Source: an uncultured Nitrospinota bacterium (lineage in GTDB: Bacteria > UBA8248). From it: DNA of 42,728 nucleotides. The position numbers were made by a program, and so were the translations under genes. The stretch covers positions 1-42,728 of the forward strand of contig CAMYJL010000001.1 of NCBI GenBank assembly GCA_947258645.1. The letters run 5' to 3'. Positions 1 to 2,502 of this stretch are shown here, piece by piece. The notes beneath the pieces were generated by a model, which was not told where the DNA came from, searched no databases, and saw nothing but the letters and a program-made list of their open reading frames with translations. How positions within the stretch are numbered: the first letter of the stretch is position 1; every line of letters starts with the position of its first letter.

Positions 1-34
1 AAGAATAAACGACGACATCTTTCACATCGCTCAA
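1..34 (-). CDS. possible 5' end of a gene continuing beyond the left window edge (MSDVKDVVVYS...)
   Basis: AAGGAGA Shine-Dalgarno 7 nt upstream of TTG at 34..32. Only 11 codons are visible, so no identity can be assigned. Confidence 0.2.
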   Translation of the reverse strand, partial: MSDVKDVVVYS

Positions 35-185
35 TCTGGTTTCTCCTTATTCATCACAGTTTAAAAAACGAAATTGGTTCTCCCCACCCAGAGGGAAGAA
101 TCCATACTACAACCCGTACTTAGGTACAGAGTCAAGGCATGCACTGCCCGGCGTCTTACCTCCCCTCAGGGCGCCGGGCGGTGTG

Positions 186-208
186 GGTTCCGGGCCAGGC
201 CCGGAACC
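186..208. terminator. GC-rich hairpin GGTTCCGGGCC-A-GGCCCGGAACC, candidate terminator after merT-like copy 1
   Basis: Perfect 23-nt inverted repeat about 26 nt past the TAA at 236..234. There is no clean U-tract on the minus strand; a T-rich run follows on the plus strand. Confidence 0.4.
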
Positions 209-233
209 GGATATCATATTTATATTCAATACC

Positions 234-713
234 TTATGTGGCACACGGATTCGCTTTAGCTCGCCCCGTGCCCACGTCGCAGGGGTTCCGGGGGCTTTTC
301 CGCAATTCCTCGACAACTTCCCTGGGCCACGGATTCTGAACCGCGCAAGGGTTCGCGGGGCTCAGGAGATACGTCACGCTCCAGGGCGGAAGCATGATCG
401 TCGCGGCGAGGATCAAAACGCCCAGATAAAGATAGGTGTCGCAGACCGTCCTGGGCCTGAGTGAGGCGAATATTCCGGAAACGCCCCCTTTCCGCCCAAT
501 CTGAAGACGCGTTTTAAAATTCCCGAAAAACGTCCACGCAAGCGCCACGGCCGCGAACGCGATGAAATAAGGCCGGTAGAAAAACAAACTCCCCAACCCG
601 CCGACAATCGAAGCCCCGAGACCCAGGGCCAGCCTGAAGGTCCATCAGGCGGATGAAGCGGACCCCGGAATAACCGACCCGGAAAAACCGGATTTTCGAT
701 GCTCCTCTCCCAT
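234..713 (-). CDS. merT: MerT-family membrane protein, copy 1, with one in-frame TGA (647..645; candidate selenocysteine, or else a pseudogene)
   Basis: GGGGAGAGAG SD plus ATG at 713, then 22 sense codons, TGA, then TGG. The same frame continues into the listed TTG ORF 234..596. The product ...GSASSA-U-WTFRLALGLGASIVGGLGSLFFYRPYFIAFAAVALAW...LYLGVLILAATIMLPPW resembles MerT (ASACCLGPLVLIALGFSGAW..EPYRPIFIG..LGFPYV). Confidence 0.6.
612..630 (-). other. SECIS-like hairpin GGCCCU-GGGUCUC-GGGGCU inside merT-like copy 1
   Basis: 6-bp stem with a 7-nt loop containing GGUCU. It starts 14 nt after the TGA at 647..645, which is 11 nt after the following TGG codon. The stem differs from the copy-2 hairpin only by pair-preserving changes. 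Confidence 0.5.
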
Positions 714-774
714 CTCTCTCCCCTCTTTTTGATAGGACGCATCCCCATGCGCCATCATTTACGGACAAGGGAAA

Positions 775-805
775 AGCTACACTCCGTACCGTGGTACGTG
801 GTCAA
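775..805 (-). promoter_or_regulatory. MerR-type operator/promoter upstream of merT-like copy 1
   Basis: The minus strand reads TTGACC-ACGTACCACGGTACGGAGT-GTAGCT: a -35 box, a 19-nt spacer and a weak -10 box. The spacer contains CGTAC-N4-GTACGGA. Compare the Tn501/Tn21 merOP, TTGACT-CCGTACATGAGTACGGAAG-TAAGGT, with dyad TCCGTAC-N4-GTACGGA. It also holds a perfect CGTACC-AC-GGTACG palindrome (785..798). Confidence 0.6.
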
Positions 806-867
806 CCGGAAAAACCGGGGCTGTCTGGCCCGTTCCGGCCGAACCCTCGTTTTGCCTGTTTTTTCAG

Positions 868-1314
868 CTACTTTTGCGCACAGGGATTTTGGGGGGCGCG
901 CGGGTTTTTCGGAGCACAGGGATTTGCTGAAGCGGGGCCAGGGCTTTTGGCCCTGACAAGGAGAGGGCGCCCCCAGTGGGGAAACGCCATCAAAGCGATC
1001 ACAGCCACCACGCCCAGGTAGAGGCGCAGGTCTTTTCCGGTCCTGGGCCAGAACTCGCCGATCACCGCCGCCGCGCCGCGCGGCCGGGCAAGGCGGACGC
1101 GATTCTTGAAATGGCGGGAGAGCGTCCACCCGAGCATCAGGATCGCGAACGCGATGAAGTAGGGACGATAGGGGGTCAGGCCGCCCAGCCCGCCCAACAC
1201 CGAGGCCCCGAGACCCGGAGCCAGCGCCGGGGCTCATCAAGCAGAGCAGGCCGCACCCGAAAAAATGGATCCGATCCAGCCGAATTTTTTTGCCTTGTCC
1301 GCATCCGCCATCAT
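868..1314 (-). CDS. merT: MerT-family membrane protein, copy 2, with two consecutive in-frame TGA codons (1239..1234; candidate Sec-Sec in place of the MerT Cys-Cys)
   Basis: GAGGAGA SD plus ATG-ATG at 1314, then 25 sense codons (MMADADKAKKFGWIGSIFSGAACSA), TGA TGA, and 121 further open codons in the same frame (the listed ORF 868..1200). APALAPGLGASVLGGLGGLTPYRPYFIAFAILMLGW...LYLGVVAVIALMAFPHW matches MerT TM1-TM3. SA-TGA-TGA aligns with MerT SA-C-C. Confidence 0.7.
1204..1222 (-). other. SECIS-like hairpin GGCUCC-GGGUCUC-GGGGCC inside merT-like copy 2
   Basis: It starts exactly 11 nt after the second TGA. Numbering the U of that UGA as 1, the loop carries G22 G23 U24 C25 U26. This is the same sequence at the same positions as the apical loop of the E. 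coli fdhF SECIS (UGA-N11-GGUUGCAGGUCUGCACC). Confidence 0.6.
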
Positions 1315-1361
1315 CGCTCTCCTCTGCGACTTGCCGCCGGGAACCACTCTCCATGCGTAAA

Positions 1362-1393
1362 AGGATACACGCCGTATTATGGTCCAGAGTCAA
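1362..1393 (-). promoter_or_regulatory. candidate promoter of merT-like copy 2 with an over-long spacer (TTGACT-N20-TATCCT)
   Basis: -35 TTGACT (1393..1388) and -10 TATCCT (1367..1362). The spacer CTGGACCATAATACGGCGTG contains only an imperfect dyad (CCATA-A-TACGG). Spacers of 19-20 nt are typical of MerR-family-controlled promoters. Confidence 0.35.
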
Positions 1394-1419
1394 GCGGTTT
1401 CGTGCGGAAAAATAGAGGC

Positions 1420-2502
1420 TCAACTCCCGTTCAGCTTCCGGTAGGCCTTCTGCATGATGAGGGCGTCGTATTCGAGGGCCGGGCTTTCGCAGACGACCCT
1501 TCCCACGACGCCGAAGTCGATCAGCGCCCGGAAGAGATCCGGGTAGTTCATGTCGGACTCGTCCAGCTCGAGGTGATGCGCCTCGCCCTTTTCGGTGTAG
1601 GCGATGCCCGAAAGATGAATGTGCATCGAGGCGAGCGCCGCTTTCCCCGCCTTGTTCTTGATCTGCTCGAGCTGGGCGGCGAATTCATCGTAGGTGTTTT
1701 TCGCCCCGGCCGATCGGGCGTGCATGTGGGCGAAGTCCACCGTCATGCCCACATTTTTCCCCTGAAGCTCCCTGGTCATCCCGGTCAGCTCATCGAGCGA
1801 GCCGAACTGGCTCCCCTTCCCGGTCGTCTCCGGGTCGAGCCGCACCGGGCACCCTTCTTCCGCCAGAATGTCGGCCAGCTCGCCGACCTGCTTTGTCATG
1901 AACGCGTACACCTCGGCGGCGTCGCGCTTTTGATAAAAGCCGGGATGAAAACACGCGCCGTCGCCGCCGCAGGCCTGGAGCGCCCGCGCCGTGTCGAGGA
2001 CGCGCTTCCGGCTCGCCTCGAGCTTTTCCGCTTCCAGCGAATAGAGGTTGATGTAGTAGGGCCCGTGCGCCGTCACGCGGACACCCGTTTCTTTCCGGGC
2101 CGCCATCACCTCTTCGCAGGTCTCGGGCCGGATGCGCACGCCGTGGACGAACTCCATCTCGTACACGCCGAGGCCGAGCTCGTGCAGGCGCTTGATCGCG
2201 CCGGGATGGCTCTGCGGTTTGGCCGAATGGGGGACGCCCCCCGTCCCGAAAAAGATGCGGTCGGTTTTTTTGGGCCTGGCGTTCACGCTGAGCGGCCCGT
2301 CGTAGACGCGGCCCTTGGGCTTTTCCTTCGGAACGCCGGGGGCCCAGCCCATGACGTTCGCGGGCGCTTTTTTCTTGGCCGGTTTTTTCTTCGCGGCCGT
2401 TTTCTTAACGGCGGTCTTGGTCTTCGCCGCCGGTTTTTTAACTGTCTTCGCGGCCGATTTGGCGGCCTTTTTCTTGAGCGGCAAAGGAACCTCCGTCTTC
2501 AA
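1420..2502 (-). CDS. endonuclease IV-like / xylose-isomerase-like TIM-barrel protein with a Lys/Ala-rich histone H1-like N-terminal tail
   Basis: The N-terminus is KKKAAKSAAKTVKKPAAKTKTAVKKTAAKKKPAKKKAP. It is followed by AP-endonuclease-family-2-like motifs (HGPYYINL, FHPGFY, DFAHMHA, HIHLSGI..E). Confidence 0.7.
   Translation of the reverse strand: MKTEVPLPLKKKAAKSAAKTVKKPAAKTKTAVKKTAAKKKPAKKKAPANVMGWAPGVPKEKPKGRVYDGPLSVNARPKKTDRIFFGTGGVPHSAKPQSHPGAIKRLHELGLGVYEMEFVHGVRIRPETCEEVMAARKETGVRVTAHGPYYINLYSLEAEKLEASRKRVLDTARALQACGGDGACFHPGFYQKRDAAEVYAFMTKQVGELADILAEEGCPVRLDPETTGKGSQFGSLDELTGMTRELQGKNVGMTVDFAHMHARSAGAKNTYDEFAAQLEQIKNKAGKAALASMHIHLSGIAYTEKGEAHHLELDESDMNYPDLFRALIDFGVVGRVVCESPALEYDALIMQKAYRKLNGS

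Follow-up and report, generated by a model that had tools for sequence, protein, structure and literature searches.

A MerT-like gene of an uncultured Nitrospinota bacterium with an in-frame UGA followed by UGG as a probable single-selenocysteine variant of the MerT cysteine pair

A reading frame interrupted by UGA may belong to a selenoprotein gene, to a decaying duplicate or to a shorter gene started further downstream, and the choice between these possibilities is the question raised by the locus 234..713 on the minus strand of a 42,728-nucleotide stretch of DNA (hereinafter, the window) from an uncultured Nitrospinota bacterium (GenBank assembly GCA_947258645.1, contig CAMYJL010000001.1). 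The window makes up the initial 42.7 kb of contig C1 in a metagenome-assembled genome (MAG) of 4.29 Mb, which is 92% complete and comprises 509 contigs. The gene in question (copy 1, or the "type B" paralog) and its neighbor (copy 2, or the "type A" paralog) resemble the mercuric transport protein MerT, and at the position of the MerT Cys-Cys pair copy 1 has UGA UGG. Comparison with related sequences makes it likely that copy 1 is a functional and intact gene encoding a MerT-like membrane protein with a single selenocysteine (Sec, U) decoded at UGA. Its translation would start from ATG 713, the UGA at 647..645 would be recoded by SelB and Sec-tRNA under the direction of the hairpin 630..612, the GGUCU loop of which lies 21 nt past the UGA, and UGG would be read as true Trp, standing in place of an ancestral Cys partner. 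The elements involved are as follows (SECIS, selenocysteine insertion sequence).

234..713, minus strand: copy 1 coding sequence ("type B" paralog), putative 159-aa three-helix MerT-like membrane selenoprotein with one in-frame UGA
645..647, minus strand: UGA codon 23, probably read as Sec; first position of the MerT Cys-Cys pair
642..644, minus strand: UGG codon 24 (Trp); second position of the pair
612..630, minus strand: SECIS-type hairpin, stem 630..624 with 618..612, loop GGUCU 623..619, the loop starting 21 nt after UGA
718..725, minus strand: Shine-Dalgarno sequence GAGGGGAG upstream of ATG 713, conserved before the ATG in L017, L018 and L019
774..805, minus strand: MerR-type promoter/operator TTGACC-ACGTACCACGGTACGG-AGTGTAGCTT with a 19-20 nt spacer and a CGTAC-N-GTACG dyad
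243..353, minus strand: C-terminal tail with three Asn-Pro-Cys (NPC) motifs (345..353, 279..287 and 243..251)
868..1314, minus strand: copy 2 ("type A" paralog), comparison gene whose UGA-UGA (1239..1234) is followed by the same hairpin

On the minus strand copy 1 reads ATG(713..711) ... GCC TGA(647..645) TGG(644..642) ACC TTC AGG CTG GCC CTG GGT CTC GGG GCT, and with TGA rendered as U its translation is MGEEHRKSGFSGSVIPGSASSA-U-W-TFRLALGLGAS..., extending over 159 codons to the stop at 236..234. The preliminary description of this locus had proposed the start at ATG 713, the succession of UGA and UGG with no insertion or deletion relative to copy 2, distances of 14 nt from UGA and 11 nt from UGG to the stem, and an Arg within the first transmembrane helix (TM1). 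All of this was borne out, the codons base for base: the two copies, 43% identical, differ by no indel between the codon pair and the hairpin, and the residue within TFRLAL is Arg27, the equivalent segment of the closest ortholog (L017) being TVRLTL. Hydropathy delineates three hydrophobic segments (22-46, 47-66 and 88-115), taken as three TM helices in a protein of MerT-like size (about 116-160 aa), while AF2 (AlphaFold2) predicts helices at 22-39, 44-74 and 90-107 with low to moderate confidence (mean pLDDT 62). The TM2-TM3 loop (67-90, KTRLQIGRKGGVSGIFASLRPRTV) is devoid of Cys, and a lone Cys91 stands at the start of TM3. Within the tail, N121, N143-P144-C145 and N155-P156 are invariant across the clade of genes with U-W and U-Y pairs (UW/UY clade), and type-A proteins likewise terminate in NPC repeats.

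States of the codon pair among relatives

Relatives were collected by six-frame searches over 51 genomes of the phylum, where the family is present in five genera, and further copies were recovered from contigs encoding database proteins truncated at UGA. A maximum-likelihood tree of 24 sequences places copy 1 inside a monophyletic type-B clade (100/99 support) and copy 2 among the type-A genes, which have two adjacent UGAs (UU); the type-B lineage probably arose from the neighboring UU-type MerT-like gene. Within type B the following states of the pair were found (dS, synonymous divergence).

U-W, second codon UGG: copy 1 of the window and L017 (60% identity, dS 0.86, same Thr-x-Arg-Leu after Trp)
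U-Y, second codon UAU: L018, L019 and L020
U-Y, second codon UAC: L049/L050, which belong to the other half of type B
U-C, second codon UGC: four sister-genus genomes
Pair absent, UGA UGC having been excised by an exact 6-nt deletion (comparison with sister L010): L030
Pair absent with loss of the N-terminal segment: L021, L051 and L052

Thus the comparison of both codons between orthologs, suggested in the preliminary description, reveals UGA fixed at position 1 (10/10 distinct type-B sequences keeping the pair, a sense codon in 0/10) and UGG, UAU, UAC or UGC at position 2, which has changed at least three times within type B. Decoding of Sec at the UGA 14 nt from the stem, one of three readings originally offered, is supported by these ten sequences, all having the same hairpin. 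Among distant members outside type B, C-U was found in L011 and L012, so that the CU type occurs in the same phylum too, and U-U in L013. The MerT pair is therefore represented within one phylum by five states (UU, UC, CU, UW and UY) in addition to exact deletions, and the combination of an invariant Sec at position 1 with a labile partner provides a clean comparative argument for the selenol as the functionally essential atom.

As to the origin of Trp, UGG had been regarded as a codon one step away from UGA. Taking into account UGC, UAU and UAC in the orthologs, descent from Cys is more parsimonious, since from UGY a single change to UGG and one or two to UAY suffice, whereas starting from Trp or Tyr would need more steps; the Trp of copy 1 probably replaced a Cys (UGY) and is not a mutated Sec codon. 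A wobble reading of UGG by tRNA-Sec (anticodon UCA) at the E. coli-like spacing was rejected as a candidate mechanism, the sister clades having UAU or UAC at this position.

Several particular features of the collected loci deserve description. Alignment of L030:4998-5447 with L010:1441-1914 shows that the 6-nt deletion has removed UGA UGC from an otherwise intact gene; a pair-deleted protein of the L030 type is found on three contigs, and the L030 locus itself has no type-A neighbor. The type-A gene at L017:448-1040 is seemingly frameshifted near a C-terminal G-run, its NPC tail running on in another frame, which may be either an error of assembly of this Logan contig or a real lesion. In a MAG annotated as "bacterium" (GCA_027294925.1, L047:2405-2839), a UU-type MerT-like gene (..MSSV-UU-APALAPGLGAS..) adjoins luciferase-like and OsmC genes, and owing to this different context the UU form is not confined to loci with tandem paralogs. 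The order of the paralogs is A-B in the window and L017 and B-A in the sister-genus loci and L049. An AP_endonuc_2 (xylose-isomerase-like TIM barrel) gene (1420..2502, minus strand) immediately precedes the MerT-like genes of the window, and such a gene is likewise found upstream in the sister-genus loci L030 and L048.

Hairpin downstream of UGA and its spacing

The hairpin GGCCCU(G)/(C)GGGGCU at 630..612 coincides with the minimum free energy (MFE) fold. Both its position and the pair-preserving character of its changes had been recognized previously, although it is better drawn with a stem of 7 bp and the loop GGUCU, so that three stem pairs distinguish copy 1 from copy 2, all of them still paired (G-C to G.U, U.G to C-G and C-G to U.G). 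According to the bacterial SECIS model (PMC13188914), the loop should be of 3-9 nt on an upper stem of 4-16 bp, with at least one G in the first two loop positions, 16-37 nt from UGA to the apical loop and MFE not exceeding -7.5 kcal/mol. The hairpin of copy 1 falls within all four constraints, having a loop of 5 nt and a stem of 7 bp, GG at the loop start, a distance of 21 nt and MFE of -11.4 kcal/mol for the 27-nt element. The Rfam search of positions 1..1500 returned no SECIS family and nothing else significant.

Alignment of 18 genes with UGA shows GUCU of the loop unchanged in 18/18 and 98.4% of stem cells paired, with two compensatory pairs (C-G to U-A and G-C to A-U), an equal value being reached in 7/500 shuffles; sliding of the 3' partner collapses the pairing. 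Gly was converted to Ser (GGU to AGU) four times, each time with retention of the loop GU. In the UGA-less L021, L051 and L052, which count as one independent lineage, the peptide PGLGAA is kept and its synonymous codons GGC CUG GGC abolish both the loop GU and the stem, while L030, with its recent deletion of the pair, retains the hairpin.

The genome is equipped for Sec decoding, with SelA and a 640-aa SelB frame both encoded on contig C57 and a tRNA-Sec that passes the Rfam threshold with 74 bits; SelA is present in 49/51 genomes of the phylum, and its co-occurrence with the family is for this reason non-discriminating. A genome-wide scan for in-frame UGA with a downstream hairpin carrying G/GU in its loop, the candidates being checked by Pfam matches spanning the UGA, allowed us to compile the following distances from UGA to the loop.

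Multihaem cytochrome (C86): 16 nt
DUF411, UGCC (C126): 17-18 nt
UGSC (C410): 18 nt
DUF1573, GCU (C260): 18 nt
MerB-like (C85): 19 nt
Four CMD/AhpD-like CxxU genes (C3, C141, C177 and C379; two confirmed by Pfam): 21 nt
Rhodanese (C191): 29 nt

In copy 1 this distance is 21 nt (14 nt of spacer plus 7 nt of stem), exactly as in the four CMD-type genes. Such a distance is ordinary for this organism, the other selenoprotein genes having the loop at 16-21 nt and one at 29 nt. The value of 11 nt, initially taken as canonical, is the distance of the minimal upper stem-loop from UGA in E. coli fdhF, where G23/U24 reside in the loop (PMC8659212). The fdhF element resembles that of copy 1 as a short G+C-rich hairpin with a GGUC(U) loop just after UGA, and if counted from the UGG of copy 1 the placement of G23/U24 would be equal to that in fdhF; copy 1 differs from fdhF in that its UGA lies a codon farther from the hairpin, with 14 nt to the stem and the loop at +21, and in the lack of an evident bulged U. 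It is plausible that 11 nt is the minimum for a hairpin held at the mRNA entrance with UGA in the A site, extra codons being tolerated. The natural experiment on spacing expected from the two paralogs proved to be real at the level of the family, since the same hairpin serves UGAs located 11, 14 and 17 nt from the stem, though it is less surprising than supposed, these values being within known tolerance. It follows that the 11-nt rule is unfit for judging SECIS candidates in other phyla, and the invariant hairpin with its differently spaced UGAs represents a ready set of constructs for studying SelB spacing tolerance outside E. coli.

Besides the MerT-like genes, the genome appears rich in selenoprotein genes, with at least nine further candidates having GGUC- or AGUCU-type loops and several families related to metals. 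One of them, at C85:5440-6150 (minus strand), is a MerB-like gene (alkylmercury lyase, PF03243, 67.6 bits) with an in-frame UGA inside the domain (..NLPYS-U-SRMNLF..) and a GGUC-loop hairpin downstream; there is no MerR-type operator in front of it, and it probably encodes a MerB-like selenoprotein.

Selection on the reading frame and rival explanations

Divergence of copy 1 from L017 corresponds to a ratio of nonsynonymous to synonymous rates (dN/dS, omega) of 0.31 over the whole gene and 0.28 after the pair (dS 0.86-0.92). For TM1, i.e. the 17 codons from UGA to the internal TTG of the window, omega is 0.27 between the two UW genes and 0.16-0.19 between UY genes, and it is this segment that carries the best-conserved motif of the family, LGLGAS/PGLGAA. 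The TTG itself (U+17) is replaced by CTG in L017 and by TTA in L018, gene callers of the databases chose four different internal starts among the orthologs, and in the sister-genus type-B genes ATG, GTG and TTG are absent within 30 codons after UGA. Because purifying selection operates on these codons and no internal start is conserved, TM1 appears to be translated, and the only way to reach it is reading through UGA. The seven codons following the pair are conserved within each clade, but omega computed for them between the UW and UY clades is 2.5-5.4 (small counts), and values above 1 just after the pair would fit a burst of change following the loss of the Cys partner. Upstream of UGA, stops or frameshifts scattered over the 648..713 segment in relatives, which according to the preliminary description would speak against Sec decoding, were looked for and observed in no ortholog, the sole length difference between clades being an in-frame 3-codon indel.

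Several observations weigh against a functional single-Sec protein. Over the 20-25 codons preceding UGA, omega in the UW/UY clade is 0.63-1.19, based on 2-6.5 synonymous differences, which is nearly neutral; estimation of dN/dS for this N-terminal segment, proposed earlier as a check, thus failed to demonstrate selection in the clade of copy 1, in contrast to the close sister-genus type-B pair L007 vs L009 (0.07), and in type A the values are 0.18-0.31. The canonical MerT site is degraded in copy 1, which has lost its second chalcogen together with the two CCxxP prolines and has Arg in the helix. Outright deletion of the pair in other type-B lineages (L030; L021, L051 and L052) implies that the site is dispensable in some backgrounds, and type B as a whole comprises about 14 sequences in very large databases, many of them mutually related. 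Compared with shuffled sequence the hairpin shows no excess of stability (z = 0.16 over 48 nt, -1.19 over 27 nt), and its significance rests for this reason on conservation and covariation. Finally, no MerA scoring above the family cut-off was found in this 92%-complete MAG (best 383.5 vs 454 bits), which leaves the mercury pathway incomplete by textbook standards.

Some of these features are what a decaying duplicate would display, with UGA acting as a stop and the remainder drifting: the loss of the second Cys/Sec and of the prolines, the Arg in TM1, the relaxed N-terminal segment, the deletions of the pair elsewhere in type B, the long type-B branch and a MerT score weaker than that of copy 2 are all in line with this possibility. 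Yet drift would hardly leave omega at the level given above over such synonymous divergence, and the same U-W-T-x-R-L is present in L017, an independent metagenome contig from another sample (Logan SRR29850979). Moreover, the frame is open and without frame-breaking indels in all orthologs, the promoter, Shine-Dalgarno sequence, ATG, UGA and hairpin are all kept, and copy 1 sits on a short terminal branch (0.075), so that decay, raised in the preliminary description, looks improbable. Still somewhat less credible, and very improbable by our estimate, is the other possibility put forward there, namely that only a two-helix protein is made from TTG 596, with the upstream 22 codons and UGA serving as a leader or upstream open reading frame (ORF). 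Such a view is compatible with the existence of the table-11 ORF 234..596 opened by this TTG, with annotation of orthologs from internal starts and with the loose constraint on the N-terminal segment, but it is contradicted by the lack of conservation of the TTG, by the absence of any candidate start in the sister genus and by selection on the very codons that would be skipped, while the conserved Shine-Dalgarno sequence precedes ATG 713 and not the TTG.

The UGA with its hairpin might also be a selenium-dependent gate in which the Sec residue has no chemical role, as could be supposed from a partner that is freely C, W or Y, from the possibility of deleting the pair and from the abundance of selenoproteins in the MerR-controlled gene set. 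A pure gate, however, could lie anywhere in the gene, whereas position 1 is aligned exactly to the first metal-binding Cys of MerT and Sec is never swapped for another residue as long as the segment exists; we therefore hold this explanation to be quite improbable. As for an assembly or sequencing error concealing a true UGA or UGC, each one base away from UGG, a MAG of 509 contigs is not immune to it, but occurrence of the same UGA UGG in the other sample, in a gene differing at 40% of residues, reduces its probability to a practically negligible level. A single-Sec protein decoded at UGA remains, in our opinion, the likely explanation. All these MerT-like genes are truncated at UGA in public protein databases.

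Affiliation, regulation and possible role

Both copies score below the cut-off of the Pfam MerT family (PF02411, 32.9 bits), copy 1 with 18.8 and copy 2 with 31.1 bits; the same model matches 14/15 family members at E<=0.01. Against NF010314 copy 1 reaches 19.7 bits with a cut-off of 150, and NF045683 leaves it unmatched, copy 2 gaining 28.6 bits vs a cut-off of 375. A profile of the copy-1 subfamily matched just 16 clusters among 1.84 billion representative proteins, the distant ones being ordinary CC-type MerT/MerTP proteins (...SACCIGPALLAL... and ...TSCCILPLV...), and the UGA is aligned to the first C of the CC pair in canonical MerT-like proteins, so that the vicinal chalcogen pair of MerT TM1 is reduced in copy 1 to Sec-Trp with one chalcogen. 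A PDB sequence search gave only chance antibody matches and no relative; scanning of genome contigs yielded nothing with the type-B alignment and only four Nitrospinota MAG loci, all known from the genome searches, with the type-A alignment; in metagenome contigs the protein pattern had no match, and the DNA pattern (UGA plus hairpin) had four chance matches, none of them a family member.

The closest classical counterpart is MerT of Tn501/Tn21 (PF02411, NF010314), like copy 1 a small inner-membrane protein of three helices, in which the pair opens TM1 and is followed by a Gly-rich helix and a turn of the YRPYF type (EPYRPIF in MerT); both genes are preceded by a MerR-type promoter whose spacer is long and whose dyad is CCGTAC-N4-GTACGG. 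Unlike it, copy 1 has Sec-Trp instead of Cys-Cys, has lost the CCxxP prolines, carries Arg in TM1, lacks the Cys pair in the TM2-TM3 loop, possesses an extra tail with three NPC motifs and is adjoined by neither merP nor merA. Selenoproteins of the MerT family have been described before: ABB16073.1, annotated as "putative mercuric transport protein", has one Sec in C/SxxU (PMC9312934; PMC13188914), CU-type MerT selenoproteins such as WP_250634603.1 are known (bioRxiv 10.1101/2022.07.06.499078), and NCBIfam NF045683 is defined as MerT/CopZ fusion-like heavy metal transport selenoprotein. They share with copy 1 homology to MerT, Sec in the metal site of TM1 and an in-frame hairpin, whereas in copy 1 Sec is first and not second in the pair, its partner is aromatic and the C-terminus is the NPC-repeat tail with no CopZ/HMA domain fused. 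Copy 2 and other type-A UU paralogs have in common with copy 1 the hairpin, the "FSG...A-U" lead-in, the NPC tail and the MerR-type promoter, and differ from it in two adjacent UGAs and in retention of both prolines (UUAPALAPGLGAS). In the literature searched there was no description of Sec-first MerT variants with Cys, Trp or Tyr as partner (U-C, U-W or U-Y), nor anything relevant on adjacent or tandem Sec codons; the copy-1 subfamily is, as far as this literature goes, a hitherto undescribed form within the known MerT-family selenoproteins.

Regulatory signals link copy 1 to a larger group of genes. The motif TTGACNNNGKACCNNNRTACGG has three sites in the window (0 expected by chance) and none elsewhere in the genome; one of these MerR-type sites stands before copy 2, one before copy 1 and one before a gene truncated by the end of the contig. 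The same promoter element with a near-perfect CCGTAC-N4-GTACGG dyad was found before the type-B genes of L017, L018, L019, L008 and L009. A generic promoter/terminator scan, which by design misses spacers of 19-20 nt, gave nothing relevant. The third site belongs to the following feature.

1..135, minus strand: third MerR-type promoter (135..104), followed by the beginning (TTG 32) of a gene for a Grx-like selenoprotein, cut by the contig end

Positions 1..55 of the window coincide in sequence with the end of another contig of the genome, C213 (6189 nt), where the locus continues, and the two contigs could be joined. The genes of C213 encode a Grx-like selenoprotein (VYSSSTUTPCK, UxxC), a LysW-like zinc ribbon, MerF-like, MerR and MerE-like proteins and a TrxR-like reductase, the MerR being 90% identical to that of L017. 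Copy 1 would accordingly be transcribed from its own MerR-type promoter and induced through MerR, the three promoters jointly controlling two MerT-like genes and the operon for the Grx-like selenoprotein, MerF, MerR, MerE and the TrxR-like reductase.

Trp and Tyr favor membrane interfaces. The residue four after Sec is Arg in the UW clade and Asn in the UY clade, and such a residue would mark a shifted start of the helix. Judging by the flanking aromatic residue together with Arg/Asn, the selenol is probably situated at the membrane interface and not inside the bilayer; the lone Sec would then occupy the N-terminal end of TM1, with the C-terminal NPC motifs supplying further thiols. Homology and regulation suggest that the protein may bind a soft metal or hand it on, the candidates being Hg(II) and species needing a single ligand, such as CH3Hg+. 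One could go further and regard the U-W and U-Y type-B proteins as a neofunctionalized MerT-like class with a single selenolate ligand at the interface and a convergent aromatic partner, Cys having then been replaced once by Trp and probably twice by Tyr; we consider this extension rather unlikely. If true, a single-selenolate site would suit one-ligand soft-metal species, e.g. CH3Hg+; the probable MerB-like selenoprotein gene is present in this genome as well. Nitrospinota are implicated in marine mercury cycling, and HgcA was not found in this genome.

Between the MerR-type promoter and the Shine-Dalgarno sequence of copy 1 there is one more hairpin, GGCGCAT-GGGG-ATGCGTC (736..753, minus strand), located in the 5' untranslated region and kept nearly base for base in L018 and L019. 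The frame across it reads "MAHGDA.YQKEGRE", and since L018 has TGA in this frame, conservation of the element is probably RNA-level or operator-proximal, not coding.

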